From positions 27,181 to 91,180 of the forward strand of contig CAZEQD010000001.1 of the NCBI GenBank assembly GCA_964514305.1: a DNA stretch of 64,000 nt, given 5' to 3'. Shown here piece by piece: positions 7,142 through 56,031 of this stretch. Each line of letters starts with the position of its first letter. The stretch's first letter is position 1. The position numbers and the translations under genes are program-made. The DNA is from an uncultured Eubacteriales bacterium. GTDB lineage: Bacteria > Acidobacteriota > Aminicenantia > Aminicenantales > Aminicenantaceae. The notes under the pieces are model-generated. The model had not been told where the DNA came from and did not search any database. It saw only the letters and a list, made by a program, of their open reading frames with translations.

Positions 7142-7988
7142 AGTGAAAAAAATAATAATTATCAATTTTATAATTTTGTTCCTAGCCTCATTCTCTCTTC
7201 AGGTTCATAGCCAGATCCGGCCAGATGAAAAGATTTTCCAGGATGCTAAGATTCTTATTTTTGATGAAAAATGGGAAAGTGCCCAGAAAAAGCTGGAAGA
7301 GTTAATTAGTAAATATCCTCAGAGTCCCTGGAGGGCTCAAGCCGTCTTTTATAAAGCTAAATGCTTGGAAGAGCAGGAAGGAAAAGAGGAGGGGGCTTTA
7401 GCCGCATATAAGGAGTTTCTTAAGCTTGAGTCTGATCAGCAGAGCCTGAGAGAAGATGCAGAAGTTTCTATTATTGACTTGGCCTCCGAGCTTTATCAAA
7501 AAGGGAAAAAGTCTTATCTAGGAGAAATCGAAAAGAGGTTAGCCAGCTCCAATAAAGTAGTAAGATATTATGCTGCTTTTGAATTAAGTTATGCAAAAGA
7601 CAAGAAAGTAGCGGTTGAGGGGATTCCGGTTCTAAAGGAGATTTTAGCTCAGGAGAAGGATCCTAGACTCAGAGATAGAGCCAAGATCGCTTTGCTCCGC
7701 ATTAATCCCGACACTCTTCAAGACATTGAAGAGGAAAGCTATCGAAATCAGGCTAGGATATTAAAAATCAGAGTTTACGAAAAGCCGCAAAAAAAACTGA
7801 AGCTTTCTTTAAATATCCCCTGGGCACTGGCTGATCTAGCTCTGGGAGCAATTCCTGCAGAAGAAAAGGCTTTGATGTGCCAAAAAGGCTATGATTTGGA
7901 TAAGATTATCCACGAATTAACCAGAATAAAAGGAAATATTATCGAAATTGAAGGTGAAGAGATAATTATTAAAATGTGGATAGATTAA
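7131..7988 (+). CDS. Secreted hypothetical protein with TPR-like/HEAT-like repeats
   Basis: Signal peptide (IIIINFIILFLASFSLQVHSQ), helical repeat composition, PRLRDRAKIAL HEAT-like motif. Coupled to the anti-sigma gene. Confidence 0.5.
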   Translation: MRFKVKKIIIINFIILFLASFSLQVHSQIRPDEKIFQDAKILIFDEKWESAQKKLEELISKYPQSPWRAQAVFYKAKCLEEQEGKEEGALAAYKEFLKLESDQQSLREDAEVSIIDLASELYQKGKKSYLGEIEKRLASSNKVVRYYAAFELSYAKDKKVAVEGIPVLKEILAQEKDPRLRDRAKIALLRINPDTLQDIEEESYRNQARILKIRVYEKPQKKLKLSLNIPWALADLALGAIPAEEKALMCQKGYDLDKIIHELTRIKGNIIEIEGEEIIIKMWID

Positions 7989-8000
7989 AGGAGGTAATAA

Positions 8001-8387
8001 ATGAAAAAAGCCGCATTTTTGATTGTCATCATTTTATCAGTAACTCTTATTTTAGCTGCTGTCCTTTTAGCTGAGAGAAATGTCGATCTTCAAACCATTA
8101 AAAAGGCTGTCAAGTCCAATCCTGCTTATGAAAAGGGCCGCGAAGTGAAGTGGATTAAGCTTTTGATTACTGATAATAAAACAAAAAAAGATAAAGTTAG
8201 AATTACTTTGCCTCTTTCTTTAGTAGAAACTTTTCTAAAATGTGCTAAAGATAAACCCCTGAGAATTCATAACGAGGAATGTGATCTTGATCTCAAAGCC
8301 CTTTTGGCTGAACTCAAGAAACTGGGGCCGACAGCCCTGATTGAAGTCTATGAAGAGGATGAGACAGTAAAAATCTGGTTGGAATAG
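8001..8387 (+). CDS. Hypothetical membrane-anchored/secreted small protein
   Basis: RBS aaaggaggtaataaATG. N-terminal hydrophobic segment. No recognisable domain. Confidence 0.4.
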   Translation: MKKAAFLIVIILSVTLILAAVLLAERNVDLQTIKKAVKSNPAYEKGREVKWIKLLITDNKTKKDKVRITLPLSLVETFLKCAKDKPLRIHNEECDLDLKALLAELKKLGPTALIEVYEEDETVKIWLE

Positions 8388-8411
8388 GGAAAAAAATTTA
8401 GCTGGAAATAA

Positions 8412-8446
8412 GGGGAAATGGAGGAATTTTCCATTTCCCCTTTTTA
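8412..8446 (+). terminator. Rho-independent terminator (11-bp stem ggggaaatgga/tccatttcccc + TTTTT)
   Basis: Perfect 11-bp stem, 7-nt loop, immediately followed by tttttat. Ends the ECF-sigma operon. Confidence 0.75.
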
Positions 8447-8548
8447 TATTGTCTTTATTTCCACGAAAGAGGCCATAACCTTACCTTGTTTGCCTGGATC
8501 AGCTCTCCTTTCCAGTCATTAAAATAAAGATACTTTATACTTTTGTAA

Positions 8549-8577
8549 TTGACAAATTATGTTGTTGCTTGAATAAT
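8549..8577 (+). promoter_or_regulatory. Sigma-70-like promoter (TTGACA-17 bp-AATAAT) upstream of the citrate-module operon
   Basis: TTGACA at 8549-8554, 17-nt spacer, AATAAT at 8572-8577. RBS aagga about 7 nt before ATG 8601. Confidence 0.4.
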
Positions 8578-8600
8578 ATTAGGGCTTAAGGAAACTTTAA

Positions 8601-10160
8601 ATGGCTAGGCTTTATGAGTACCAAGGCAAAAAACTTCTCAGGGAAGCTGGCTTGCCCGTACCCAAGGGAGAGGTAGTTTCTTCTGCGTCTGAAGGCCGTA
8701 AAATCGCTGAACAACTTGATAGGCCAGTGGCCTTGAAGATGCAGGTCTGGCTGACTGGTAGAGCTGGTTTTGGGGGCATTCAATTTGCCGAGAAACCTCA
8801 ACAGGCTGAGAAACTGGCTGATAAAATGCTGGACACGAAGATTAAAAATTTTGTGGTTGAAAAGCTTCTGGTGGAAGAAAAGCTGGCTATCAAGGCTGAA
8901 TATTTTGTTGGTTTAATAATTGATGATGCCCAAAAAAAACCTGTTCTTATATTCAGCACGGTAGGAGGCACCGGTCTTGAAGAGGTAATTCGTTCCCAGC
9001 CAGAGAGAGTTGCTTATCTATATGTTGATGTCCGGCGTGGTTTGCAGGAATATGAAGTTCGCAATTTTCTGCTTCAATTAGGAATATCCGCTCGGCTCCT
9101 CCATAAATTGTCTGATTTCATAACGAAATTTTATAAGATGGCCCGCAGATACGATGCCCGCTCAGCTGAGATAAATCCTTTGGTCTTAACTGAAGACGAT
9201 AAAATTTATGCTGCCGACTGCCATATAGTAGTGGATGATTATGCAGTCTATCGCCATCCTGAACTGCAAATAGAAGTGGCCAGAGAATTTGACCGTCCGC
9301 CTACTCTTCTGGAAAAAATTGCTTATTGGGTTGAGGAAAAAGATCATCGAGGCACTTTTTATTTTTTTCAGATGGTTGAGGATGTTTCTGGTAAAGAAAA
9401 TTATATAGGTTTTCATGGAGCTGGCGGCGGTGGTTCGATGATGTCTATGGATGCTGTCCTCAGCCGAGGCTTTAAACTGGCTAATTATTGTGATACGAGC
9501 GGTAATCCAGCTGCCAGTAAGGTCTATCGAGCCGCTAAAATTATCCTTTCCCAACCTAATATCAAAGGCTATTTTGCCTCTGGTTCTGGCGTTGCCAGCC
9601 AGGAACAATTTCATTCAGCCCGGGGATTGGTGAAAGCTTTCCATGAGGAAAAGATTGAAATTCCGGCTGTTATCCGCTTGGGTGGTAACTATGAAGAAAA
9701 GGCCATCGAAATTTTAGGTAATTACCTGCGTCATCTGGCGGCTAAAGTAGAAGGCTACGGCCGAGATGACTCGCCTGAGTTTTGCGCTCAAAGGTTAGAA
9801 GAGTTAATTGAGGAGAATAAGGCTAAAAAGCATAAAGTAAGACCTATAAAGGAGCCAGAGATTTCACCTGCGGCTTACTCTTTTGAGACTTTAACAGGGA
9901 AAGTTTATATCGACCACCAGAAGTGTGCTAGTTGCCAAAGCAAAGGCTGTATTCAAGCATGCAGTGCTCAGATATTAAGACTTAAGGAGGGAAAACCTAT
10001 CCTCTCCATTACTCAAGAAGAAGCCAAAAAAGGCAAATGTACAGAATGTTTAGCCTGTGAAATTTATTGCACTTTTCATGAGAAAGCAGCTCTTTACATC
10101 CATCTTCCTATTTTGGGCCTTAAGGAATACCGTAGTAGAATTATCAAGGATAAGAAATGA
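8601..10160 (+). CDS. Succinyl-CoA synthetase beta-like / ATP-citrate lyase beta-like ATP-grasp subunit (candidate citryl-CoA synthetase large subunit) with C-terminal ferredoxin-like Cys cluster
   Basis: MARLYEYQGKKLLREAGLPVP matches the SucC/AclB N-terminus. ATP-grasp and CoA-ligase domains (GGGSMMSMD, NYCDTSGNPA). Extra C-terminal ~110 aa with C-x2-C-x4-C-x3-C ... C-x2-C-x2-C-x3-C. Confidence 0.8.
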   Translation: MARLYEYQGKKLLREAGLPVPKGEVVSSASEGRKIAEQLDRPVALKMQVWLTGRAGFGGIQFAEKPQQAEKLADKMLDTKIKNFVVEKLLVEEKLAIKAEYFVGLIIDDAQKKPVLIFSTVGGTGLEEVIRSQPERVAYLYVDVRRGLQEYEVRNFLLQLGISARLLHKLSDFITKFYKMARRYDARSAEINPLVLTEDDKIYAADCHIVVDDYAVYRHPELQIEVAREFDRPPTLLEKIAYWVEEKDHRGTFYFFQMVEDVSGKENYIGFHGAGGGGSMMSMDAVLSRGFKLANYCDTSGNPAASKVYRAAKIILSQPNIKGYFASGSGVASQEQFHSARGLVKAFHEEKIEIPAVIRLGGNYEEKAIEILGNYLRHLAAKVEGYGRDDSPEFCAQRLEELIEENKAKKHKVRPIKEPEISPAAYSFETLTGKVYIDHQKCASCQSKGCIQACSAQILRLKEGKPILSITQEEAKKGKCTECLACEIYCTFHEKAALYIHLPILGLKEYRSRIIKDKK

Positions 10161-10165
10161 TTGAA

Positions 10166-10280
10166 GTTTAAGGTTTAAAGTGAAAAGTGAAAAGTAAGAA
10201 GTGAGAAGTGAAGAGTGGGAAGTTAGGAGTTGAAGGTTTAAGGTTAATTTCTTTAAACTTTCAACTTTAAACTTTAAACC
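10166..10280. repeat. Intergenic array of phased 7-nt repeats (12 heptads: gtttaag gtttaaa gtgaaaa gtgaaaa gtaagaa gtgagaa gtgaaga gtgggaa gttagga gttgaag gtttaag gttaatt) followed by inverted GTTTAAA heptads
   Basis: Strict 7-nt periodicity over about 84 nt on the + strand. Then tttaaactttcaactttaaactttaaacc, which is the same heptad on the opposite strand. Sits between the beta-like and alpha-like subunit genes. Confidence 0.7.
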
Positions 10281-10294
10281 AATAAGAGGTTTTA

Positions 10295-11191
10295 ATGTCC
10301 ATTCTGGTTAACAAAAAATCAAGAGTTTGTGTGCAGGGAATTACCGGAAGAGAAGGCATGGTCCGAACTAAATTGATGCTTGATTATGGTACTCAAGTAG
10401 TAGCTGGGGTGACTCCAGGGAAGGGAGGAAAAGAAGTTTATGGAGTTCCTGTTTTCGATTCTGTCCAGCAAGCTATGACTAAAGTTGGTCAGCTCGACAT
10501 CAGTGTTATTTTTGTTCCCGCTCCCTTAGTCAAAAACGCAGCCTTAGAGGCAATAGATGCCGGCATTAAACTTCTTGTTCTTATTCCCGACCGAGTGCCT
10601 ATTTATGATGTTCTGGAAATTATAAGTTTTGCCCAAGAGAGAGGAGCTCGATTTGTGGGACCTAATACTCTGGGTCTGATCAGTCCGGGGAAAGCAGTCT
10701 TAGGTATGATAGGAGGTCGAGCCGAAAGAGCCAGAGAATGGTTTCAACCTGGAACGATCGGGGTCAGTTCCCGAAGTGGAGGCATGACTTCAGCAATTTC
10801 CTATTATCTAACTCAGGTAGGCCTCGGTCAGAGTACCATCGTTCATGTGGGCGGGGATGCTGTTTTAGGCCTTTCTCATCCAGAAATTATGGAGCTTTTT
10901 GAAAAAGATGAGCAAACAGAAATGGTCGTTATGTTTGGGGAAATAGGGACAACACAAGAGGAAAGAGTAGCTGATTTAATTAAGGAAGGGAAATTTACTA
11001 AGCCTCTTATTGCCTTTATAGGTGGCAAAGCCGCTAAATCCGGGACAAGATTTTCCCATGCGGGGGCTATTGTTGAAGGTTCTAAAGGCTCCTATGAAAC
11101 TAAAGTCAAGAAATTGAGGGAGGTTGGAGTTCATATTGCTCATTCGATCTCTGATATTCCCAATTTAGCTCTGCGCTTAAAAATATCCTAA
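10295..11191 (+). CDS. Succinyl-CoA synthetase alpha-like / ATP-citrate lyase alpha N-terminal-like CoA-binding subunit (candidate citryl-CoA synthetase small subunit)
   Basis: Collinear match to SucD: ...VQGITGREG..., GVTPGKGG, SRSGGMTS, phosphohistidine loop SHAGAI. RBS aagaggttttaATG. Confidence 0.85.
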   Translation: MSILVNKKSRVCVQGITGREGMVRTKLMLDYGTQVVAGVTPGKGGKEVYGVPVFDSVQQAMTKVGQLDISVIFVPAPLVKNAALEAIDAGIKLLVLIPDRVPIYDVLEIISFAQERGARFVGPNTLGLISPGKAVLGMIGGRAERAREWFQPGTIGVSSRSGGMTSAISYYLTQVGLGQSTIVHVGGDAVLGLSHPEIMELFEKDEQTEMVVMFGEIGTTQEERVADLIKEGKFTKPLIAFIGGKAAKSGTRFSHAGAIVEGSKGSYETKVKKLREVGVHIAHSISDIPNLALRLKIS

Positions 11192-11202
11192 GGAGACAAA
11201 CC

Positions 11203-11979
11203 ATGAGTGAACTTCATTGGAAAACCTCAATAACCGATATTAAGCCCAATAAAATTTGTGTAAGGGGTTATGCTGTAGACAAGTTGATGGGCAAAGTGTC
11301 TTTTGCTCAAGCTATTTATCTGATTTTAAAGGGGGAACTTCCTCCAGTGGAAGTAGGTAAATTAATTGAGGCTATTCTCGTTTCTTCAATTGATCATGGA
11401 GCTAGTCCTCCTTCGGTTTTAACAGCTCGAACTGTAGCTTCAACCGGAGCCGAGCTAAATGCGGCCATTGCCGCCGGCATTCTGGCTATTTCCCATTACC
11501 ACGGAGGAGCAGTGGAAGAAGGGATGCAACTTTTTTTAGAGGTTGACAGGAGGGCAACCAGCAAGAATATTTCCATCAGGAAAGCAGTTGCTGAAATATT
11601 AAAGGAAATGAAAGATAAGAAAAAAAGGGCTTCCGGTTTTGGCCATCGATTTCATTCTCAGGATCCGAGAACTAAAAAGCTTTTTTCCCTGGCTGAGGAG
11701 CTTGGCCTGGCCGGCAAGTTTGTAAAAATTGCTTTAACTATAGAAGAAGAATTAGCTGATCTTGTGGGCCACCCTCTGCCCCTAAATGTCGATGGGGCCA
11801 TAGCTGCTCTTCTTTGCGAGCTAGACATACCTCCAGAAATAGGCAATGCTTTCTTTATTATGGCGCGAGTTCCTGGACTGGTAGCCCATATCCATGAAGA
11901 AAAGAGCAGAATGAAACCAATGAGGAAGATCCATCCCCAGGATTATGAATATGACGGTCCCCCGGAGAGAGATTTATGA
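11203..11979 (+). CDS. Citrate synthase-like small protein (candidate citryl-CoA lyase)
   Basis: 258 aa with the citrate-synthase catalytic-domain motifs HYHGGA, GFGHRFHSQDPR, NVDG, ARVPGLVAHIHEE, but no CS N-terminal domain. That size and content fit the citryl-CoA lyase / AclA C-terminal family. Confidence 0.7.
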   Translation: MSELHWKTSITDIKPNKICVRGYAVDKLMGKVSFAQAIYLILKGELPPVEVGKLIEAILVSSIDHGASPPSVLTARTVASTGAELNAAIAAGILAISHYHGGAVEEGMQLFLEVDRRATSKNISIRKAVAEILKEMKDKKKRASGFGHRFHSQDPRTKKLFSLAEELGLAGKFVKIALTIEEELADLVGHPLPLNVDGAIAALLCELDIPPEIGNAFFIMARVPGLVAHIHEEKSRMKPMRKIHPQDYEYDGPPERDL

Positions 11980-12512
11980 TGGCCAGTCGAATTACATCTT
12001 TAATTCCTGAGTTTAATCTTATTGAAGATAGCCAGCTTCGTCAGCAAACAATTAAGGTCTGGCAGGAGGCAATAAAAAGTAGAAGCTGGACCTTGGAGGA
12101 TCTGAAAGCCATGCCTTTCACATTGTTGATTGAGGAAGCTCAGGTTAACATAATCCAGCATACCCGAGCTGTTACTATCTGTGCGTATAAAATTGGCCAA
12201 GTTTTAAAGAAGGAATACAGGGATAAAATCAGTCTTAACCAAGATTATCTGGTAGCAGGTGCCCTCCTTCATGATGTGGGTAAGCTTTTTGAGTTTAAGA
12301 GAGAGGCTAAAAAATTTGTCAAAAGTGAGGAAGGCAAGTTAATCCGTCATCCCATATCTGGGGCTGCATTTGCTTCTAAATATGGGCTTCCCTCCGAAAT
12401 CATTCATATTATCGCTGCGCATTCTAAAGAAGGAGACGGGGCCAGAAGGACGTTGGAAGCGGTCATCGTCCATCATGCTGATTTTATTAACTTTGAAATT
12501 TTCTTAGAATAA
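11976..12512 (+). CDS. HD domain phosphohydrolase
   Basis: HDVGK motif plus a downstream HHADF-type metal ligand. 178 aa. Overlaps and is coupled to the upstream gene. Confidence 0.65.
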   Translation: MMASRITSLIPEFNLIEDSQLRQQTIKVWQEAIKSRSWTLEDLKAMPFTLLIEEAQVNIIQHTRAVTICAYKIGQVLKKEYRDKISLNQDYLVAGALLHDVGKLFEFKREAKKFVKSEEGKLIRHPISGAAFASKYGLPSEIIHIIAAHSKEGDGARRTLEAVIVHHADFINFEIFLE

Positions 12513-12533
12513 AAGTAAAAGAGGAGAAATTAT

Positions 12534-13787
12534 TTGGGTAAGACATTTACCGAAAAAATTCTAAGCCTTAAGGCGGGTCGAGATGTTAAAGCTGGTGATA
12601 TTGTTACCGTCTCTCCAGATTACATTCTTTCTCACGATAATTCAGCAGCTATTATCCAAGAGTTTAAGAAGCTGGGTCTGGCCAAGATGAGGTGGCCCCA
12701 AAAGGTGGTTATCGTTTTGGATCATGTGGTTCCCGCTTCCTCGGAAAAATACGCTCTCAATCATAAGATAATCAGGCAGTTTGTAGCAGCCCAGAAAATA
12801 AAAAATTTTTTTGACATTTCGCGGGGAATATGCCACCAGGTTTTTTTTGAAGAAGGATTTGCCTTGCCAGGGAAGTTGATCTTAGGAGCCGATTCCCATA
12901 CTACCTTGGCTGGAGCTTTGGGCGCTTTTGCCGCTGGCATCGGCCGTTCAGAAGTAGCCGCTCTATGGGCGACAGATGAGATCTGGCTAAAGGTTCCTCC
13001 TACTATAAAAATTGAAATAGAAGGCAAAATCCCTGATGGAGTTTATGCCAAAGATATTATTCTCCATATAATTGGTCAGGAAGGAGCTGATAGAGCTAAT
13101 TACAGATCAGTTGAATTTTGGGGGAAAACAGCAAAAGAAATGAGCCTTTCTTCTCGACTGGTTCTGGCCAATATGGCGGCAGAAATGGGGGCCAAAAATG
13201 CTTTCTTTGCACCTGACAATAAAACAGAACAATGGCTATCTGGAAGGGCGAGGAGCGATTTCCAGCCCATTATTCCCGATCCAGAGGCTGATTATGAAGA
13301 TATTCTTCGATATGATATTTCTCAACTGGACCCTCAAGTTGCCTGTCCCCACAGGGTAGATAATGTCTGCCCCATCTCAGAAGTGGAAGGGCTGAAGTTC
13401 GATCAGGCAGTGATAGGTACCTGCACCAATGGTCGGGCTGAAGACCTGGAAGTAGCTGCTAAACTTTTGAAAGGAAAAAACATCCATCCTGGAGTGAGAG
13501 TTATAATTATTCCCGCTTCCTGCCTGGTCTACCTCCAGGCACTGCAAGCAGGTTGGTTGGAAGATTTATCCAAGGCAGGCTGCTTAATTTTAAATCCAGG
13601 TTGTGGGCCTTGCCTTGGAGCCCATGAGGGAGTTTTGGCCCCAGGAGAAGTGGCTTTGTCTACAGCCAACCGTAATTTTCGGGGAAGGATGGGAAGCAGA
13701 GAGGCTGAAATTTACCTGGCTTCGCCGGCCACTGTGGCCGCTTCTTCTTTGGAAGGAAAAATCACAGACCCTAGGAAATATCTATGA
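12534..13787 (+). CDS. Aconitase-family dehydratase large subunit, archaeal-type (3-isopropylmalate/homoaconitate/aconitate hydratase LeuC/HacA-like)
   Basis: 417 aa, MGKTFTEKIL... N-terminus typical of archaeal-type LeuC. GICHQV and Fe-S Cys motifs (GTCTNGR, PGCGPCLG). Confidence 0.85.
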   Translation: MGKTFTEKILSLKAGRDVKAGDIVTVSPDYILSHDNSAAIIQEFKKLGLAKMRWPQKVVIVLDHVVPASSEKYALNHKIIRQFVAAQKIKNFFDISRGICHQVFFEEGFALPGKLILGADSHTTLAGALGAFAAGIGRSEVAALWATDEIWLKVPPTIKIEIEGKIPDGVYAKDIILHIIGQEGADRANYRSVEFWGKTAKEMSLSSRLVLANMAAEMGAKNAFFAPDNKTEQWLSGRARSDFQPIIPDPEADYEDILRYDISQLDPQVACPHRVDNVCPISEVEGLKFDQAVIGTCTNGRAEDLEVAAKLLKGKNIHPGVRVIIIPASCLVYLQALQAGWLEDLSKAGCLILNPGCGPCLGAHEGVLAPGEVALSTANRNFRGRMGSREAEIYLASPATVAASSLEGKITDPRKYL

Positions 13788-14293
13788 AAAAAGGAAGAGT
13801 CTGGAGATATGGAGATAGCGTCAATACAGATGTTATCTTTCCCGGAAAATATACTTATTCTATTCAAGAGCCTAAGGAAATGGCTGCTCATGCTCTGGAG
13901 GATCTTGACCCTCAGTTTTCAAAGAAAGTAAGGCCAGGTGATGTTATTGTAGCCGGCTCGAATTTTGGCTGTGGCAGTTCAAGGGAGCAGGCGGCCACCT
14001 GTCTTAAATATGCTGGTCTGCAGGCGGTTATTGCTAAATCTTTTGCCCGGATTTTCTTTCGGAATGCCATTAATCAGGGACTACCTGTTATTCAGTCCCC
14101 TCAAGCTGTGGAGAATATTGCCAATGGCGAAGAAATTGCCATCGATTTTACTCGGGGTAAAATCAAAACCAAAACTAAATCCTTTAACTTTGAGCCTCTG
14201 CCTGATTATATCTTAAAGATTCTTGAGGCTGGAGGTCTTATTGCCTACGTTAAGAAAAAGCTGAAAAATACAAACAGGAGTAGAACAAAATGA
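13784..14293 (+). CDS. Aconitase-family dehydratase small subunit (LeuD/HacB-like)
   Basis: 169 aa, [14 protein letters not shown] and [13 protein letters not shown] swivel-domain motifs. Coupled to the large subunit. Confidence 0.8.
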
Positions 14294-15405
14294 GTAAATA
14301 TAAAATTGCTCTTTTGCCTGGCGATGGAGTAGGTCAGGACATCATGGAGGCAGCCATGATAGTTCTGGAGAGGATTGGTCTTGAAGCGGACTATGTTTAT
14401 GGTGATATTGGCTGGAGATTCTGGTGTCAGGAAGGAAATCCGCTGCCCGAACGGACTATCAGCCTCCTTAAGGAAACAGATGTCTGTCTTTTCGGAGCTA
14501 TAACTTCCAAGCCCAAGGAGGATGCTCTAAAAGAACTTAACCCTGATTTAAGAGGAAGGGGTTATGTCTATTTCAGCCCTATAGTACGTCTCCGCCAGGA
14601 ATTTGATCTTTATACTAATTTAAGGCCCTGCAAAGCTTATGCGGGCAATCCCCTTAATTACAGAGATAATATAGATTTGGTTATCTTCAGAGAGAATACT
14701 GAAGGTATGTATGCTGGCGTTGAATTTTACCCTCTGCCTGATCAGGTAAGAGAAGCTTTGCTCATTCACCCTAAAATGAAAAAGTTCCAGGATGTTCCTG
14801 TCGAAGAAATTGCTCTTTCCACCCGGATAATGACCAAGAAAGCCTGTAGCAGAATCCTGCGAAGAGCTTTTAATTATGCCCGGAGATATAAGCGGAGATC
14901 CGTGACTCTTGTCGAAAAACCGAATGTGCTCAGAGAAACAGGAGGATTTATCCTGGAAATAGCCCGGCAAATGGCTAAAGAGTATCCTGAAATTGAGTTC
15001 AGAGAAGCTAATATCGATGCCATGGCCATGTGGTTGGTCAAAAATCCTCAAGATTATGATGTCTTAGTGGCTGAGAATTTGTTTGGAGATATTATCTCTG
15101 ATCTTTCAGCTCAATTGGTAGGTGGTTTAGGTTTTGCCTGCAGCGGGAATATAGGTGATGATTATGCTCTTTTTGAACCCACCCATGGTTCTGCTCCTAA
15201 ATATAGCGGCCTCTACAAGGTGAATCCCATAGCCATGCTCCTGGCCACAAAAATGATGCTTGATTGGTTAGGTGAGGAGGATTTAGCTAAAAACTTGGAA
15301 AGGGCAGTAGCCCAAGTTATTAAAGAAGGTAAAGTAAGGACCTATGATTTAGGGGGTAACTCTTCGACACTGGATGTTGCCCGAGAAGTTGCTTCAAAAC
15401 TTTAG
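14290..15405 (+). CDS. Isocitrate/isopropylmalate/homoisocitrate dehydrogenase family protein
   Basis: 371 aa. IALLPGDGVGQDI, LRQEFDLYTNLRP, NLFGDIISDL and FEPTHGSAPK motifs of the beta-decarboxylating dehydrogenase family. Substrate cannot be assigned from sequence. Confidence 0.85.
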   Translation: MSKYKIALLPGDGVGQDIMEAAMIVLERIGLEADYVYGDIGWRFWCQEGNPLPERTISLLKETDVCLFGAITSKPKEDALKELNPDLRGRGYVYFSPIVRLRQEFDLYTNLRPCKAYAGNPLNYRDNIDLVIFRENTEGMYAGVEFYPLPDQVREALLIHPKMKKFQDVPVEEIALSTRIMTKKACSRILRRAFNYARRYKRRSVTLVEKPNVLRETGGFILEIARQMAKEYPEIEFREANIDAMAMWLVKNPQDYDVLVAENLFGDIISDLSAQLVGGLGFACSGNIGDDYALFEPTHGSAPKYSGLYKVNPIAMLLATKMMLDWLGEEDLAKNLERAVAQVIKEGKVRTYDLGGNSSTLDVAREVASKL

Positions 15406-15419
15406 GAATATATAAAAAA

Positions 15420-16670
15420 ATGGGTCAGACTATTATCGAAAAAATCATTCAAAGCCATACCCAGGAAGAAGTCAGACCTGGTAAAATTGTCTGGCTGGAT
15501 CTGGATATCAGGTCGGCCAGGGATTTCGGCGGCCCCAATGTTGTCCGCAACTACGAGAGGGAATATGGGGATAAACCAGTGGCTGATAGCCGTAAAACCT
15601 TTTTCACTTTTGATCTTTGTGCTCCGGCCTGTTCTTTAAAATATGCCGATAACCAGCAGCTTTGTCGTTTATTTGCTCGCCGTCAGAATATAAAAGTTTT
15701 TGATGTTGATCAAGGTATAGGTTCCCATGTTATGATAGAAGAGGGCTTGGCTAAAGCCAGGACTACCGTTGTCGGTACTGACAGTCATTTCAACATTCTG
15801 GGAGCAGTAGGCAGCTTTGGTCAGGGCATGGGCGATGTCGATATTGCCTTTGCCTTTAGAACAGGCCGAACCTGGTTTGAGGTACCGGAAACAGTAAAAA
15901 TTATTCTTAAGGGCAAGTTTTCTTTTCCGACCACAGCTAAGGATGTGACTCTTTTTATCCTAAAAAACCTGGGGACTTCTAAAGCAGCCTTAAAGGCAAT
16001 TGAATTTTATGGGGAAGCGTTGAGGCAGTTTTCTTTAGCTGAACGGATCACTCTCTGTTCGATGGTTACTGAGATGGCCGGCATTATTGGTTTTATCCCT
16101 GAATTTAAGGCTCAGACAAAAGCTGAAATAGAAAAAGTTTCAGGAGTGGAATTTAATCCCTTTCAAGCTGATGAGGATGCTTACTATACTGAGACAATTG
16201 GGATTGACATTGATGGTCTCCAGCCTCAGGTAGCTGCTCCTTTTTCCCCAACCAACGTTAGACCGGTCTCTGACTTAAAAGGAGTGAGGATCGACTCTGG
16301 CTTTATTGGTTCCTGTACAAATGGACGAGTGGAAGATTTTGCTTTGGCCAGTCGTATTTTAGCCGGCAGAAAAATAAAGCCTGGGATAATGCTTAAAATA
16401 GCCCCGGCCACCAGGCTGGTCTATCAACAGATGCTGGAAAAGGGGCTGATTAAAGAACTTTTTCAGAGTGGAGCCATTATTGATAGTCCTGGCTGTGGAG
16501 GATGTGCTGAAGGGCATATCGGTCTTACCGGAGAAGGCGAAATTCAAATAAGCAGTGCCAACAGAAATTTCGCCGGTAAACAAGGTAAGGGTCAAACCTA
16601 CCTGGCCAGCCCTGCTGTGGTTGCTGCCTCTTGTGTTTTAGGTCATATTGCCAGCCCGGAGGATTTATAA
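15420..16670 (+). CDS. Second aconitase-family dehydratase large subunit (archaeal-type LeuC/HacA-like paralog)
   Basis: 416 aa, MGQTIIEKII..., GTDSHF, GSCTNGR, PGCGGCAEG. Paralogous to 12534-13787. Confidence 0.8.
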   Translation: MGQTIIEKIIQSHTQEEVRPGKIVWLDLDIRSARDFGGPNVVRNYEREYGDKPVADSRKTFFTFDLCAPACSLKYADNQQLCRLFARRQNIKVFDVDQGIGSHVMIEEGLAKARTTVVGTDSHFNILGAVGSFGQGMGDVDIAFAFRTGRTWFEVPETVKIILKGKFSFPTTAKDVTLFILKNLGTSKAALKAIEFYGEALRQFSLAERITLCSMVTEMAGIIGFIPEFKAQTKAEIEKVSGVEFNPFQADEDAYYTETIGIDIDGLQPQVAAPFSPTNVRPVSDLKGVRIDSGFIGSCTNGRVEDFALASRILAGRKIKPGIMLKIAPATRLVYQQMLEKGLIKELFQSGAIIDSPGCGGCAEGHIGLTGEGEIQISSANRNFAGKQGKGQTYLASPAVVAASCVLGHIASPEDL

Positions 16671-17211
16671 AGTGAAAAAAAGCAGATTAAAAGGAAGGCT
16701 GTGGGTCCTTTGTGATAGCCAAGGTCAGTTGCTGGAAGATATTGATACCGATCAAATTTATCATAATGCATACCTCTACATTACTGATGTAGCCCAAATG
16801 GGTCAATATGCTCTGGGAAGTCTGAAAGGCTGGAAAGATTTTTCCCGAAAAGCTTCGGCCGGGGATATTATTGTGGCCGGCCGCAATTTTGGAGCCGGAT
16901 CTTCCAGACAGCAGGCAGTGGATTGTTTTATTTCTCTGGGAATATCGATGATTATGGCTCCTTCTTTTGGGGCCATTTATTTTAGAAATGCTGTTAATTC
17001 TGGCTTTCCTGTGCTCAGGAGTGCTGAAATTGAGTCATTAGTCAGGAATAAAGAATTGGAAAGTGGAGATATAGTCAAGGTTGATTTCAGACAGGGCCAG
17101 GCTATAAACATAACTAAAAAGATCTCTTTTACTTTAGAGTCCATGAGTGATGTCCAATACCAAATATACTTGGCCGGGGGATTATTCAGATATGGACGGA
17201 AGTTAAGATAA
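16648..17211 (+). CDS. Second aconitase-family small subunit (divergent LeuD-like)
   Basis: 187 aa, DIDTDQIYH and GRNFGAGSSRQQA motifs. Overlaps and is coupled to the large subunit. Confidence 0.7.
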   Translation: MPARRIYKVKKSRLKGRLWVLCDSQGQLLEDIDTDQIYHNAYLYITDVAQMGQYALGSLKGWKDFSRKASAGDIIVAGRNFGAGSSRQQAVDCFISLGISMIMAPSFGAIYFRNAVNSGFPVLRSAEIESLVRNKELESGDIVKVDFRQGQAINITKKISFTLESMSDVQYQIYLAGGLFRYGRKLR

Positions 17212-17224
17212 AGTTCCATCAAAT

Positions 17225-17905
17225 ATGCTAATTCTTGCTGTTGATACTACTACCTGGTCAGGATCAGTGGCTCTGCTTAAAGGTGCTAAGCTGCTGGCTG
17301 AAGTTAATCTTGAATCTCCCTTAACTCATTCTGAAAAACTGCTTCCGGCCATAGATTTTGTCCTGAAAGCCCACGCTCTGGACATTAAACATGTGGAAGG
17401 CTTTGCTCTGGCTGTAGGACCGGGGTCTTTTACCGGCATCAGGATTGGCCTGAGCACTGTCAAATCTTTTGCTTTTGCTTCGGGAAAGCCAGTGGCTCCC
17501 ATTTCTTCTTTGCAGGCCCTAGCTTTTAAGATGCGCTCTTCTGCAGCCCGCCTTGTTTCACCTGTTGTTGACGCCAAGAAAGGGGAAATTTACGCTGCTC
17601 TTTTTGAACTGAAGGCTCAGCATCTGGAGGAAATAGTTGTCCAAGGAGCTTATAAACCTGATTTATTCTTTTCTCTTCTTCCTGCCCACCGGATTATTCA
17701 TTTTATCGGCAATGGACTGGAAAGCTACAAACAGAAGATTTTTCAATATCTTAAGGATAAAGCCCGCTTCTCACCCCGGACTTATTTTATAGCTTATGAA
17801 GTCGGACTTTTAGGTTATGAATTGTTTATTCATAATAGGGGATTGAGTTTTGAAGAAGTGGAGCCTCTCTATTTTAGAAAGTCTCAAGCGGAGGAGAAAG
17901 ATTAA
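17225..17905 (+). CDS. tsaB: tRNA threonylcarbamoyladenosine biosynthesis protein TsaB (YeaZ)
   Basis: MLILAVDTTTWSGSVALL... and the GPGSFTGIRIG motif. The classic tsaB-rimI pairing. Confidence 0.8.
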   Translation: MLILAVDTTTWSGSVALLKGAKLLAEVNLESPLTHSEKLLPAIDFVLKAHALDIKHVEGFALAVGPGSFTGIRIGLSTVKSFAFASGKPVAPISSLQALAFKMRSSAARLVSPVVDAKKGEIYAALFELKAQHLEEIVVQGAYKPDLFFSLLPAHRIIHFIGNGLESYKQKIFQYLKDKARFSPRTYFIAYEVGLLGYELFIHNRGLSFEEVEPLYFRKSQAEEKD

Positions 17906-17945
17906 AAAAGACAAACTCCTAACTCCTTTTTTTTACCTAAAAAAA

Positions 17946-18377
17946 ATGGAAGAAAAAGATGTAGCTTCAGTCTTAGCTATTGAGAAAGTGTCATTTACCA
18001 ATCCCTGGCAGGAAGCAACTTTTTTGGGAGAAATAAGTAACCGCTCCATTTCTTTTCCTTATGTGATTGTTCATAAAGATTTAGATAAAGTCATAGGTTA
18101 TATAATTTATTGGAAGATAAAAGGAGAGGTTCAAATCAGTAATATTGCCGTTCATCCAGATTTTAGGCAGAGAGGAATAGCTGAGGCTGTCCTCCGCCAG
18201 GTAATGAATGAATTAAAAAGAGAAGGAGCTGAATTTATTACTTTAGAAGTCAGGCCTTCCAATACAGCCGCTTTGCATCTTTACAGGAAATTAGGGTTTG
18301 AAATCTTAGGCATAAGAAAAAATTATTATACCCATCCTCAAGAACACGCTTTAGTCATGGGCAAATATCTCAGCTAA
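17946..18377 (+). CDS. rimI: Ribosomal-protein-alanine N-acetyltransferase (GNAT) RimI
   Basis: GNAT motifs (IAVHPDFRQRGIAEAVL, LEVRPSNTAALHLYRKLGF). Start moved to the internal Met at 17946 to avoid overlap with tsaB. Confidence 0.75.
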   Translation: MEEKDVASVLAIEKVSFTNPWQEATFLGEISNRSISFPYVIVHKDLDKVIGYIIYWKIKGEVQISNIAVHPDFRQRGIAEAVLRQVMNELKREGAEFITLEVRPSNTAALHLYRKLGFEILGIRKNYYTHPQEHALVMGKYLS

Positions 18378-50922: not shown

Positions 50923-52029
50923 TTAATCTCTTAGTTTAAATTTTTTATCCAGTTTTTCGAGTGTTTGGACAATACCGCCATACTCCAGCTCACTATAAGG
51001 AAGCATAGCTGCTCCTGAAAATCCTTGTCTCCTGATGGCCGTGGCCTTTTCAGAAATTTTAGTACGGACATAATCCCAGTAGGGGTGGTCGAAAACATCA
51101 GCCGGTTCAGTTAATTTACCATCTTTGACACAAAAGGCAGCTCCAGTAACTACAGGCGGACCATCGAAGAAGGAAATGGTAGTGTTCAGCTTACAAGGCA
51201 TCAGAGGTCCATTATGGCTTCCTCTCATAAACCCGGCCACAAAATGTCCGATATGAAAAGGAGCCAGAACTTCTCCTGTAGCGGGAAATTCACCCTGGAC
51301 CCGGACTAAAGCCACCGGATCGTCTTTGCCTGTATATTTACCAGCAATATTGTGTAAACGAGTGGTCGAAATAGCTACCGCTTTATTGCCAGTCCGGCGG
51401 GAATAAATGCTTTCAATGACGTATCTTTCATTGTCCCGGAGAAGGGCAGCAATGTCATACAGATCTTCAGGCGCATTAAGTTCGATTATTTTATCTTTTT
51501 CTGTGTAGGCCACATCTATGATGTGAAAGCTGAAGCCATCACTCATTTTTGGGCTTAAAATTAAGCCGGCACAGTACATAGGATCAGCAAAAGCCAGGTA
51601 GAAGGGTAAATTATAAGCACCTGGATCAGTTTTATCAGCCGCAAAAAAGACAAAGGGCTCATTGGGACGCTCTTCAAATTCCATTTCAGCTACAGCAGGG
51701 CCCATGCCTTTTATGTTGCCGCTGAAGGCGTCTTTCAATAGATCCTGGCCAGCTCCATAAAGGCCTTGTTTTTTGGCCATAGCTGTCCCAGCCAGGAAAG
51801 CATCCCAGGCCAATTTATGAATCTTTTCGTCCAGTCGACCTCTTTCATGAGTGCATAAAATAGCGATGTCGTCACCAGTATGACTGAGATAGAAATCGAT
51901 TAATAAATTTTTGCCATTTTCCTGGATGAAATTCCTAACTTCATTGATCAATGCTTGGCTGGGAGTTATATGACCTCCAATGCTTCCAACATCAGCTTTT
52001 AAGACACTAAGTGTTATTTTCATAAACAC
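50923..52029 (-). CDS. fbp: Bifunctional fructose-1,6-bisphosphate aldolase/phosphatase (class V FBPase)
   Basis: KITLSVLKADVGSIGGH and AFLAGTAMAKKQGLYGAGQDLLKDAFSGNIKGMGPAVAEME closely parallel the archaeal FBP aldolase/phosphatase family. About 368 aa, as expected. Confidence 0.85.
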   Translation of the reverse strand: MFMKITLSVLKADVGSIGGHITPSQALINEVRNFIQENGKNLLIDFYLSHTGDDIAILCTHERGRLDEKIHKLAWDAFLAGTAMAKKQGLYGAGQDLLKDAFSGNIKGMGPAVAEMEFEERPNEPFVFFAADKTDPGAYNLPFYLAFADPMYCAGLILSPKMSDGFSFHIIDVAYTEKDKIIELNAPEDLYDIAALLRDNERYVIESIYSRRTGNKAVAISTTRLHNIAGKYTGKDDPVALVRVQGEFPATGEVLAPFHIGHFVAGFMRGSHNGPLMPCKLNTTISFFDGPPVVTGAAFCVKDGKLTEPADVFDHPYWDYVRTKISEKATAIRRQGFSGAAMLPYSELEYGGIVQTLEKLDKKFKLRD

Positions 52030-54667: not shown

Positions 54668-55969
54668 TCACGGTTTTGGAAATGATTCCATTCTGAATAA
54701 GGCTAAAGGTGTTTGGAGAAAAAAGCGGTAGAGATTAGCTTTGGCCTTAAACTCTTGAAAATATTCTCGTCTTAAAGGATTAACTGGTTTGAATCTCCAA
54801 GCTAAAGGATTGATATATTTCCCTCTGTATCTAATCCGATAATCAAGATGAGGACCAGTCGATTCTCCAGATGAACCGACAAAGCCAATAATTTGCCCAC
54901 CTTTGACTTTGGCTCCTTTTCTTATACCCTTGGCATAATTTCTAAGGTGGAGATAAAGAGTTTCATAAGCCTGGCTATGACGGATTTTAATCATTCGGCC
55001 TGAAGCTCCATTCCAACCGACAAAAGTGACTATTCCATCAGCAGTTGCCTGGACAGGAGTCCCTACTTTAGCTGCATAGTCAACCCCATAATGGGGTCTG
55101 TAAATTTTGAAGATAGGATGGAGCCTTCTGAAGCTGAAACAGGAAGTGATGCGGGCAAATTTTATAGGTGACTTAAGAAATTCTTTCCTTAAAGAATTTC
55201 CTTCTAAGTCAAAATAGTCTGACTCTCCACTGTCAGGATAAGTATAGCGGTAAGCCTCAAATGTTTTTCCTTGATTAGTGAAAGATGCTGCTAAGATGTG
55301 ACCGTAACCGACAGATTCACCCTTTAAATATTTTTTTTCAAAAATAATTTTGAAGGAGTCACCTGAGCGAAGATCTGTGTAAAAGTCGATATCCCAGGCG
55401 AAGATCTCAGCCACAGAAAGAGCCAAATAATCCTTTTCCCATTTTTGATTCACGGCCTCAATTAGATTATCATTAATTGTCCCCCAGATCATTCTTGGTT
55501 TTGTAACCACCGGAAACTTCTTTATGTCCGCCTGATAACCATCTTTTTTGGTTTGAATAAGAAGATAGTGTTCAGGATCAATATCGTATTCTAAGGAGAT
55601 AAATTCTTTCTGGGGAGAAAAATAAAGACGGACTTCATGTCCAGCTTTTATTTTAGCCAGATCGTAAACAGGTTTCGCCTTTTTGCTTAAAATACCAATT
55701 GCTACCGGAGTAAAATTATAAGAGCTGAGGATGTCAGTCAAAGTCATTCCATTTTTTATGATTATTTTTTCTTCTTGGAGAGGATTTGAGGGCACCTCTT
55801 TAGGAATATTTAACTCAGTTGGCTTGGCCTTTATTGTCTGGCAAGAGTGCTTTTTATAAAAAAAGCTCAACCATAAAAAAATAATGAAGAGAGCAATTAT
55901 AAAGAACAATAAAAAAATTAATTGGGCCTCTTTTCTTTTTTTGGCCACTTTTATTTTTATTTTTCTCAT
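54668..55969 (-). CDS. M23-family peptidase (LytM-like), membrane-anchored
   Basis: N-terminal TM. HYGVDYAAKVGTPVQATADG and YLHL motifs of the M23 peptidase family. Confidence 0.8.
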   Translation of the reverse strand: MRKIKIKVAKKRKEAQLIFLLFFIIALFIIFLWLSFFYKKHSCQTIKAKPTELNIPKEVPSNPLQEEKIIIKNGMTLTDILSSYNFTPVAIGILSKKAKPVYDLAKIKAGHEVRLYFSPQKEFISLEYDIDPEHYLLIQTKKDGYQADIKKFPVVTKPRMIWGTINDNLIEAVNQKWEKDYLALSVAEIFAWDIDFYTDLRSGDSFKIIFEKKYLKGESVGYGHILAASFTNQGKTFEAYRYTYPDSGESDYFDLEGNSLRKEFLKSPIKFARITSCFSFRRLHPIFKIYRPHYGVDYAAKVGTPVQATADGIVTFVGWNGASGRMIKIRHSQAYETLYLHLRNYAKGIRKGAKVKGGQIIGFVGSSGESTGPHLDYRIRYRGKYINPLAWRFKPVNPLRREYFQEFKAKANLYRFFLQTPLALFRMESFPKP

Positions 55970-56031
55970 TTTTAATTCGGGTAATTATTGAACCAGAGCC
56001 TATCTTAAAATGCAACCCTGAGATTGTTATT

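Follow-up and report, generated by a model that had tools for sequence, protein, structure and literature searches.

We analysed an operon of nine consecutive genes that fills positions 8601-17211 of a 64-kb stretch of DNA (the window, whose coordinates are used throughout) from an uncultured bacterium; the same contig is present, identical, in several public metagenomes and its homologues carry the name Candidatus Aminicenantes. The gene calls and the open reading frame (ORF) translations place all nine genes on the plus strand (Table 1): the beta and alpha subunits of an acyl-CoA synthetase, a citryl-CoA lyase (CCL), an HD-domain protein and two LeuC/LeuD-type (LeuCD) pairs on either side of a dehydrogenase of the isocitrate dehydrogenase (IDH) family. 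We propose, giving it about an even chance, that together they connect 2-oxoglutarate with acetyl-CoA plus oxaloacetate in five steps, with net flow towards cleavage in a heterotrophic anaerobe. Protein family membership, conservation of the operon and swapping of its parts with citrate-specific enzymes in other phyla were observed; we infer what the enzymes act on, how the two LeuCD pairs share the aconitase reaction and which way the route runs.

The earlier note on this DNA, made from the sequence alone, had listed eight same-strand, translationally coupled genes. All the gene types that it named were detected on the plus strand, including the two LeuCD-like pairs bracketing the dehydrogenase; the genes number nine, as does its own list when counted. 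Most junctions are tightly coupled: CCL/HD, LeuC1/LeuD1 and LeuD1/IDH each overlap by 4 nt, and the others have gaps of 1-21 nt. The exception is beta and alpha, which are separated by a 134-nt spacer folding into a long hairpin (minimum free energy -29.3 kcal/mol, z = -3.4). The spacer differs widely in length between orthologous loci; by acting on mRNA processing or stability it could set the ratio of the two subunits. An Rfam scan of 7900-17600 at E <= 1 gave no match, and no riboswitch or leader was found in the 213-nt upstream region or in the spacer. The promoter-like site before beta is a consensus match only, and the regional count of such sites equals the shuffle expectation.

Table 1. 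Features of the operon and its left boundary
Feature	Position	Strand	Remarks
Terminator-like hairpin	8410..8442	+	15-bp stem and T run; ends the upstream gene; left boundary of the operon
Sigma-70-like promoter match	8549..8577	+	TTGACA-17-AATAAT, 11/12, 24 nt 5' of the beta start codon
beta, putative large subunit of a CCS-like acyl-CoA synthetase, 519 aa	8601..10160	+	ATP-grasp, ACL/CCS-type carboxylate-binding and C-terminal ferredoxin domains
Ferredoxin domain of beta, 2x[4Fe-4S]-type	9906..10109	+	residues ~436-503; Cys 442, 445, 450, 454, 480, 483, 486, 490
beta-alpha spacer	10161..10294	+	purine-rich GTGARAA-like repeats, then an 18-bp A/U-rich hairpin
alpha, putative small subunit, SucD-like, 298 aa	10295..11191	+	CoA-binding domain and phosphohistidine loop (FSHAGA)
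Predicted citryl-CoA lyase (CCL), 258 aa	11203..11979	+	NCBIfam citryl-CoA lyase models
HD-domain protein, 178 aa	11976..12512	+	Pfam HD
LeuC1, large subunit of aconitase-family hydro-lyase 1	12534..13787	+	TTG start; IPMI_arch subfamily
LeuD1, small subunit of hydro-lyase 1	13784..14293	+	loop matches that of the fused 'homoaconitase-like' hydratase
IDH-family beta-decarboxylating dehydrogenase, 371 aa	14290..15405	+	Iso_dh family; NADP signature; loop YFSPIVRLRQ
LeuC2, large subunit of divergent aconitase-family hydro-lyase 2	15420..16670	+	NF001614 passed
LeuD2, small subunit of hydro-lyase 2	16672..17211	+	ATG start as called; the mechanical ORF begins at TTG 16648
CCS, citryl-CoA synthetase; ACL, ATP-citrate lyase.

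Predicted citryl-CoA lyase and its putative synthetase partner

The 258-aa protein, which consists of the C-terminal citrate-synthase domain alone, appears from its sequence to be of the bona fide citryl-CoA lyase type. It passes two curated NCBIfam citryl-CoA lyase models of the PRK06224 subfamilies (NF004869, 268.3 against a cutoff of 212; NF004866, 263.6 against 245), and in the PDB it matches the Hydrogenobacter thermophilus CCL (6hxp_A) with 214.7 bits, at 47% identity, the best citrate synthase reaching 77.1 bits. Residues H100, H148/R149, R156, D197 and R222 do not vary among eight CCLs taken from four contexts, the H. thermophilus enzyme included; we take them to correspond to H274/H320/R329/D375/R401 of pig citrate synthase, the catalytic His/His/Asp and the oxaloacetate-binding Arg. 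The predicted keto-acid pocket shows no sign of change relative to the characterised CCL. The suggestion that this gene was of citryl-CoA-lyase size was borne out, since the protein groups with the characterised lyase and not with citrate or methylcitrate synthases.

The synthetase combines features of two families. Alpha has the intact phosphohistidine loop described earlier (...FSHAGA..., read from the translation) and matches the archaeal succinyl-CoA synthetase (SCS) alpha subunit 2yv2_A with 308.7 bits and the CCS subunit CcsB (6hxq_A) with 172.6 bits; its 309.8 bits are slightly under the SucD equivalog cutoff of 336. Beta is longer than about 390-430 aa, the ferredoxin domain making up its last ~90 residues, and it matches the Pfam families ATP-grasp_2 and Citrate_bind (PF16114, 32 bits against a cutoff of 26.8), with 244.7 bits under the SucC equivalog cutoff of 370. 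Whole-length searches with beta, by sequence and by fold, returned SCS first and CCS second (36% identity to Thermus SucC, 30% to CcsA). The ATP-grasp half is nearest to Thermus SucC (40% identity) and the second domain aligns at full length only with CcsA; beta is a mosaic. Matches of the synthetase to ACL are weak (87 bits for Chlorobium AclB, 29-39 bits for other ACLs).

We scanned 1.84 billion cluster representatives and built a rough neighbour-joining tree from 114 representatives and three anchor sequences, in which beta falls into a third clade, apart from the SucC clade and from the clade with H. thermophilus CcsA. Like the CcsA clade, this third clade has the insertion RPPT..D[HY]RG (RPPT..DHRG in the window), GGGGS where SucC has NGAGL, GNP where SucC has GGG, and no NIFGGI[TV]R; in the window GAGGGGS and GSGVASQEQ stand where SucC has NGAGL and NIFGGI[TV]R. 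The loops that differ between the clades are those that hold succinate in the SCS structures and citrate in the ACLY structures. Beta is thus probably not a SucC, the alternative that had been held open for the alpha/beta pair, and appears to belong to a clade of its own with ACL/CCS-type acid-binding loops. Because both subunits are overall nearer to SCS than to CCS, citrate as the acid substrate rests on these loops and on the gene context. The earlier comparison with the two-step citrate cleavage of Aquificae holds for the chemistry and fails for the descent: alpha sides with SucD when tested for grouping with CcsB, beta likewise lies outside the CcsA clade, and the pair is not orthologous to the Aquificae CCS.

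The ferredoxin domain of beta, which the earlier account of this subunit omitted, shows the cysteine pattern CxxCxxxxCxxxC ... CxxCxxCxxxC, matches Pfam Fer4_9 below the cutoff (22.8 against 27) and is modelled by AF2 with a pLDDT of about 90. In a fold search with the beta model, this domain was not covered by any solved SCS, CCS or ACL structure. All eight Cys are kept in the Aminicenantes orthologues; fused forms of ~490-540 aa occur throughout the beta clade, down to about 43% identity, next to unfused members of 410-425 aa, and on a Bathyarchaeia contig a 92-aa ORF of its own, lying between the beta and alpha genes, encodes the domain, with a CitE/HpcH-type lyase gene after alpha. The Cys conservation, the fusions across the clade and this separate ORF make the domain a conserved third component of the enzyme clade. 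Our guess for its role is redox sensing or docking.

The Bathyarchaeia locus (L042, 9694-13361, JAWCKG010000004.1) has the order ThiS-like, beta (424 aa, Citrate_bind), 92-aa 2x[4Fe-4S] ORF, alpha and HpcH/CitE-type lyase, and is an archaeal relative with the ferredoxin module as its own subunit and a lyase of a different fold. Distant ferredoxin-fused ATP-grasp proteins (P0153, P0162; about 30% identity) were set aside as a different family on account of their radical-SAM/RiPP-like contexts. At L043 (3168-9159) and L040 such ~30% identical proteins lie beside radical SAM/SPASM, PqqD and peptidase genes, a neighbourhood that looks like a peptide-modification system and not like central metabolism.

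Recurrence of the operon and exchange of its parts

CCL scans of species-representative genomes and metagenome contigs gave about 110 loci, which were mapped by tblastn. The HD gene comes immediately after CCL in 84 of 93 loci, CCL is preceded by beta and alpha in 61 of the 67 with enough upstream sequence, and the full nine-gene order is present in 31 of the 46 with enough downstream sequence. This recurrence of the nine-gene order argues against a chance juxtaposition. The genes inserted into broken clusters are unrelated; split clusters and variant flanks (L027, L031, L121, L106) were checked for leuA, ilv, 2-oxoglutarate:ferredoxin oxidoreductase and pyruvate:ferredoxin oxidoreductase and held unrelated genes only.

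Related modules of other lineages differ in their parts. The Calditrichia version, headed by a TrmB-family regulator, reads TrmB-CCL-HD-IDH-PrpD-like, with a divergent CitF (citF equivalog, 537.8 against 501) and an aminotransferase, and has no SCS-like genes and no LeuCD. At L118 the order beta(Fer4)-alpha-CCL-HD-IDH-PrpD stands beside a divergent fused 658-aa aconitase-family hydratase. An Ignavibacteriales contig carries IDH (58% identity)-HD (41%)-fused hydratase-PrpD-CitD/CitE fusion-CitF. Three unrelated citrate-cleaving systems share one slot beside the same HD and dehydrogenase genes, and loci that have neither LeuCD pair carry a PrpD-like dehydratase instead, accompanied in two lineages by the fused hydratase. 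Citrate is the substrate of CitF and CitDEF, and PrpD takes both citrate and methylcitrate; the swapped-in enzymes therefore bind the module to citrate far more firmly than the window's own protein sequences do.

Several of these loci show further features. In the Calditrichia-like loci L032 (7419-14241), L034, L100, L105, L109 and L112, a stand-alone CitF is divergent from TrmB-CCL-HD-IDH-PrpD and no CitE or CitD was seen nearby, which suggests a hybrid citrate lyase with ATP-independent cleavage by the citrate-synthase-fold lyase. The Ignavibacteriales locus (L124, 6023-14859, QZKB01000133.1) has an ORF6N gene between the fused hydratase and PrpD, and this hydratase is annotated as homoaconitase despite lying in a citrate lyase operon. 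At L041 (973-16165), beta(Fer4)-alpha-CCL is followed by two amidohydrolases, with a divergent cluster of hydantoinase A/B, family III CoA-transferase, HMGL-like lyase, isochorismatase and PrpD; here the three-gene unit is used in a different catabolic context. At L106 (10001-14162), a canonical full-length citrate synthase (371 aa) is encoded 2 kb downstream of CCL-HD, with both types in one neighbourhood. Downstream of PrpD at L100 (6819-8681), L032 (14500-16209) and L118 (14521-16107) are proteins of 528-620 aa with no Pfam or NCBIfam match.

The HD-motif residues of the HD protein are all invariant. A PDB sequence search with it found no homologue, and its AF2 model (pLDDT 88.7) matched only generic HD phosphohydrolases in Foldseek, the HD domain of YhaM being first (TM 0.64). 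In the Ignavibacteriales locus, which has no CCL, the HD protein adjoins the IDH-family gene; since it stays with the dehydrogenase where CCL is absent, it is tied to the whole pathway and not to citryl-CoA chemistry as such. We guess that it is a phosphohydrolase acting on the dehydrogenase or on a by-product of the pathway.

These contexts also bear on the alternative that beta and alpha are a true SCS, perhaps docking by the ferredoxin domain to a 2-oxoglutarate:ferredoxin oxidoreductase, in a cluster that is a tricarboxylic acid (TCA) cycle gene set. We regard it as very improbable: the top sequence and fold matches of both subunits are SCS, beta is publicly annotated 'succinyl-CoA synthetase beta subunit' and the ferredoxin domain is weakly similar to OorD (E = 4.6e-4), but both subunits score under the SCS equivalog cutoffs, the two clade-differing loops are of the ACL/CCS type and not that of SucC, and the CCS-type insertion is present. 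Moreover, the pair adjoins CCL at nearly all the loci counted above and is exchanged with CitF in the same type of operon, and the Bathyarchaeia member of the clade is paired with an acyl-CoA lyase of the CitE/HpcH type.

Hydro-lyases, dehydrogenase and the acid substrate

Both LeuCD pairs pass archaeal-type LeuCD/HacAB subfamily models (TIGR02086, TIGR02087 and NF001614 were used): LeuC1 with 535.6 against 410 (IPMI_arch), LeuD1 with 210.1 against 109, LeuC2 with 415.4 against 385 (NF001614) and LeuD2 with 126.3 against 109. LeuC2 is under the IPMI_arch cutoff (392.9 against 410), and both pairs are under the cutoffs of the isopropylmalate isomerase equivalogs (TIGR02083/TIGR02084) and of methanogen homoaconitase. 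The translations contain the Cys ligands of the iron-sulfur cluster (GTCTNG and GCGPC in LeuC1, GSCTNG and GCGGC in LeuC2) and the GSSR catalytic motif (GCGSSRE in LeuD1, GAGSSRQ in LeuD2). With [4Fe-4S] ligands and GSSR in place, both hydro-lyases are predicted to be catalytically competent.

In the Methanocaldococcus jannaschii enzymes the small-subunit loop distinguishes isopropylmalate isomerase (YLVY) from homoaconitase (YLRT). Neither LeuD has either of these: LeuD1 reads YTYS (YTY[STA] in orthologues), and the LeuD2 loop (residues ~31-36) reads YLYIT in the window and mostly [FHY]LHIT in orthologues. The Tyr of LeuD2 replaces the orthologues' usual His at the position that aligns with the Arg of methanogen homoaconitase. 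The fused hydratase of the sister modules is highly conserved (about 70%) across Calditrichia, Ignavibacteriales, Zixibacteria, KSB1 and Bacteroidota; its small-domain loop TDGIYPGKYTY does not vary among 120 homologues and is matched by the specificity loop of LeuD1, and LeuC1D1 is nearer to it in sequence than LeuC2D2. Fungal and Thermus homoaconitases carry out only the hydration half-reaction, dehydration being left to another enzyme, and PrpD and aconitase likewise split the isomerisation in the methylcitrate cycle (PMC3556520). From the loop match, the closeness of LeuC1D1 and these documented splits we infer that LeuC1D1 corresponds to the fused hydratase (cis-aconitate to isocitrate) and LeuC2D2 to PrpD (citrate to cis-aconitate).

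The dehydrogenase of the Iso_dh family passes no curated model (best IDH model NF006529, 299.6 against 510), and the solved structures closest to it are NAD-isocitrate dehydrogenases (260 and 238 bits), followed by Thermus homoisocitrate dehydrogenase (HICDH; 234) and isopropylmalate dehydrogenases (<= 205). With query residues 234-353 aligned to residues 274-392 of E. coli IDH (4ajb), its K304, Y305, V311 and Y352 align with K344, Y345, V351 and Y391, and the R395 equivalent is Gly; these five E. coli residues classically determine the use of NADP. At the aligned positions D-I and T-P-D-L occur in the structures of NAD-dependent IDH and HICDH, and the K-Y pair is found in 52/53 orthologues, those of other phyla included. 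To our knowledge, all characterised isopropylmalate and homoisocitrate dehydrogenases use NAD. The NADP signature, set against the NAD-type residues of the HICDH and NAD-IDH structures and this NAD use, points to isocitrate as the probable substrate. The substrate loop YFSPIVRLRQ is invariant: S96 is equivalent to Ser113, Ile98 replaces Asn115 and Arg100 is extra. In E. coli IDH the Ser113/Asn115 pair binds the gamma-carboxylate of isocitrate.

Several of these results weigh against citrate and isocitrate as the substrates. Whole-length beta and alpha are nearer to SCS than to the characterised CCS; both LeuCD pairs, their LeuC subunits included, match the M. jannaschii isopropylmalate isomerase with better scores than its homoaconitase; the Arg by which methanogen homoaconitase recognises the distal carboxylate is missing from both LeuD proteins; the dehydrogenase has no equivalent of E. 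coli IDH Asn115 and is under every IDH equivalog cutoff; and the fused hydratase passes the NCBIfam 'homoaconitase' model (861.7 against 529.9), which leaves room for a homocitrate reading. We rate the homocitrate reading low, since the dehydrogenase has an NADP signature, the partner enzymes are specific for citrate and the pocket of CCL is unchanged.

A wider alternative is that the LeuCD pairs and the dehydrogenase serve 2-oxoacid chain elongation (leucine/isoleucine, or lysine via homocitrate), either adjoining CCS/CCL or using a homocitryl-CoA version of it, which we consider improbable. The best matches of LeuC1 and LeuD1, to the M. jannaschii isopropylmalate/citramalate isomerase (402 and 166 bits), speak for it, as do the Arg missing from both LeuD loops, the equivalog match of the fused hydratase, and the methanogen homoisocitrate dehydrogenase model, which is the top NCBIfam match of the dehydrogenase, under cutoff. 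Against these stand the absence of leuA, cimA, homocitrate synthase, ilv and lysW genes from all of the ~110 loci, the NADP-type residues of the dehydrogenase where the matched HICDH and NAD-IDH structures are NAD-type, the oxaloacetate-binding residues of CCL, which are those of the characterised enzyme, and the continued linkage of the dehydrogenase to CCL, CitF or CitDEF where LeuCD is absent. Taken together, the CCL-type lyase, beta outside SucC, the NADP determinants and the CitF/CitDEF and PrpD plus hydratase swaps support the core of the earlier reading, a module between citrate and 2-oxoglutarate.

Direction of flow and relation to known systems

In the proposed route the IDH-family enzyme would interconvert 2-oxoglutarate, CO2 and NADPH with isocitrate, LeuC1D1 would interconvert isocitrate and cis-aconitate, and LeuC2D2 cis-aconitate and citrate; the beta(Fer4)/alpha enzyme would form citryl-CoA from citrate, ATP and CoA via the phosphohistidine on alpha, and CCL would cleave it to acetyl-CoA and oxaloacetate. 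The 2-oxoglutarate would come from glutamate or peptides, the oxaloacetate would enter gluconeogenesis and the acetyl-CoA would serve to gain ATP. Such a flow would be a bacterial counterpart of reductive glutamine metabolism rather than an autotrophic cycle.

The standard free energy of the citrate lyase reaction is near zero and cellular oxaloacetate is very low, so the acetate-releasing CitF/CitDEF variants realistically run only towards cleavage. This direction of the sister modules, the citrate synthase near CCL-HD at L106, the fermentative lineage and the peptidases, symporter and fructose-1,6-bisphosphate (FBP) enzyme of the window favour flow from 2-oxoglutarate to oxaloacetate and acetyl-CoA. 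ATP-citrate-lyase chemistry, on the other hand, is reversible and runs towards citrate, gaining ATP, in Desulfobacter; this counts against the cleavage direction, and the thermodynamic argument is therefore not strictly applicable to the ATP-dependent variant of the window.

For that variant the reverse, ATP-conserving direction is a serious rival, to which we give roughly one chance in five. CCL would condense acetyl-CoA and oxaloacetate, the CCS-like enzyme would yield citrate and ATP as an energy-conserving substitute for citrate synthase, and the hydro-lyases and the NADP-IDH would make 2-oxoglutarate for glutamate synthesis in an energy-limited fermenter. The NADP-type IDH is the usual biosynthetic form; no full-length citrate synthase was found in the annotated parts of the window; earlier Aminicenantes reconstructions counted such genes as cs/acn/idh of the oxidative branch, and Baltic sediment transcripts called 'citrate synthase' were assigned to Aminicenantes (PMC4897734, PMC6469976). 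This is countered by the sister modules, which swap the ATP-dependent step for CitF or CitDEF, unable to drive citrate synthesis from acetate at physiological oxaloacetate, by CCL-HD beside a canonical 371-aa citrate synthase at one related locus, and by the ample glutamate of a peptide degrader.

An autotrophic or gluconeogenic lifestyle had been suggested for the host on the strength of the archaeal-type FBP aldolase/phosphatase at 50923-52029, which was confirmed by a Pfam FBPase_3 match of 542 bits. Gluconeogenesis fits better; autotrophy is unlikely because Aminicenantes are described as anaerobic fermentative degraders of peptides and sugars (PMC6469976, PMC4897734, PMC5459899). A complete autotrophic reductive TCA (rTCA) cycle, as in Aquificae and Leptospirillum, with the operon as its citrate-cleaving arm, is for us improbable and a weaker rival than the reverse ATP-conserving direction. 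CCS/CCL-type enzymes are known mainly from rTCA autotrophs, the FBP enzyme is encoded in the window, and a preprint names Acidobacteria and Caldithrix, for their CCS homologues, among possible candidates for the rTCA cycle (10.1101/2022.10.25.513756). The published genome studies of the lineage cited above oppose such a cycle, as does the occurrence of the module with an acetate-releasing citrate lyase in organotrophic lineages, and neither the 64-kb window nor the ~110 inspected flanks contained genes for 2-oxoglutarate or pyruvate:ferredoxin oxidoreductase or fumarate reductase.

The remainder of the window is ordinary chromosome, with glycosyltransferases, the dcw cell-division cluster, peptidases, an Na:alanine symporter and the class V FBP aldolase/phosphatase. 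The stretches 50923-52029, 54668-57411 and 59789-61312 encode the latter, an M23 peptidase, the symporter and an M28 peptidase, a set that agrees with a gluconeogenic anaerobe living on peptides. As had been noted, no canonical AcnA/AcnB or leuA was found in the annotated parts of the window. TsaB and a RimI-like acetyltransferase (17225-18377) begin 13 nt after LeuD2, as they do in essentially all Aminicenantes loci; since no terminator was detected between LeuD2 and these genes, the operon transcript may extend into the tRNA-modification genes downstream.

As a tentative generalisation, which we think possible but would not expect to hold in full, the cleavage route would be a widespread anaerobic pathway of Aminicenantes, Calditrichia, Ignavibacteriales and relatives, leading from glutamate-derived 2-oxoglutarate through the NADP-IDH and two hydro-lyases to citrate and on to oxaloacetate and acetyl-CoA or acetate, with interchangeable parts, a fixed HD protein and, in the ATP-dependent version, the first SCS-family enzyme with an iron-sulfur subunit or domain of its own. 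If true, this would give microbes a way of fermenting glutamate and feeding gluconeogenesis that is independent of B12 and parallels reductive glutamine metabolism; three unrelated citrate-cleaving systems, and LeuCD pairs or PrpD plus fused hydratase, would be exchanged around the HD protein. The part-swapping across phyla gives a testable hypothesis, that peptide-fermenting anaerobes without a respiratory TCA cycle convert glutamate carbon to oxaloacetate and acetyl units. Two-step CCS/CCL citrate cleavage is taken as a marker of autotrophic rTCA bacteria and is found here as a fixed operon in a globally abundant sediment lineage described as a fermentative heterotroph, so that genomes are misread if such genes are counted as carbon fixation or annotated 'succinyl-CoA synthetase' or 'citrate synthase'.

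The chemistry of the single steps (CCS plus CCL, aconitase, IDH) is already known, and CCS homologues in Acidobacteria and Caldithrix had already been listed (10.1101/2022.10.25.513756). Literature searches on citryl-CoA, TCA and isopropylmalate metabolism in Aminicenantes, and on clusters of homoaconitase, citrate lyase and PrpD genes, returned no account of the operon, nor of an iron-sulfur domain or subunit in the SCS family, the HD partner, the double hydro-lyase or the exchange of parts across phyla.

Among known systems, the CCS and CCL of H. thermophilus (6HXQ, 6HXP) use the same two-step ATP-dependent cleavage with SCS-like alpha/beta subunits and a ~260-aa citrate-synthase-domain lyase; the lyases share their catalytic residues and beta shares the insertion and the GGGGS and GNP loops. 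The window beta differs in forming its own clade, at about 30% identity to CcsA, with an ATP-grasp half and an alpha partner nearer to SCS and a 2x[4Fe-4S]-type domain that CcsA lacks; the fixed HD partner and a host lineage described as a heterotrophic fermenter are further differences. SucCD is the best overall sequence and fold match of both subunits and the same phosphohistidine mechanism is expected, but the window subunits are under its curated cutoffs, have NGAGL and NIFGGI[TV]R replaced, an extra insertion and the ferredoxin domain, and lie next to CCL.

ACL (AclAB of Chlorobium, ACLY of eukaryotes) has the same overall reaction, three catalytic modules and the same type of acid-binding loop, and mammals use it on citrate that they make from glutamine-derived 2-oxoglutarate by reductive carboxylation, a flow to which the proposed one would be analogous. 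Unlike in ACL, the window lyase is separate and not fused to alpha, the sequence similarity is much lower, and ACL has no iron-sulfur domain. CitDEF/CitF is non-homologous and ATP-independent, releases acetate instead of acetyl-CoA and does not occur in the window; it takes the same place beside HD, the IDH-family gene and PrpD in the sister operons of Calditrichia and Ignavibacteriales, and is therefore probably functionally interchangeable with the CCS-like enzyme plus CCL.

The split isomerisations of fungi and Thermus (aconitase plus homoaconitase) and of the methylcitrate cycle (PrpD plus aconitase) likewise employ two hydro-lyases for one usual aconitase step, and the LeuD1 specificity loop is common to the fused homoaconitase-like hydratase that accompanies PrpD; the window enzymes differ in being both LeuCD-type iron-sulfur heterodimers, with citrate/isocitrate, not homocitrate/methylcitrate, as the probable substrate. 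The dehydrogenase shares the Iso_dh fold, the Ser113 equivalent and K344/Y345/V351/Y391 with the Icd-type NADP-IDH of E. coli and the small NAD-IDH (6LKY) compared with it, and differs from them by its intermediate length of 371 aa, by having Ile at the position of Asn115 and an additional Arg two positions further on (S-P-I-V-R-L-R), and by passing no curated IDH model.

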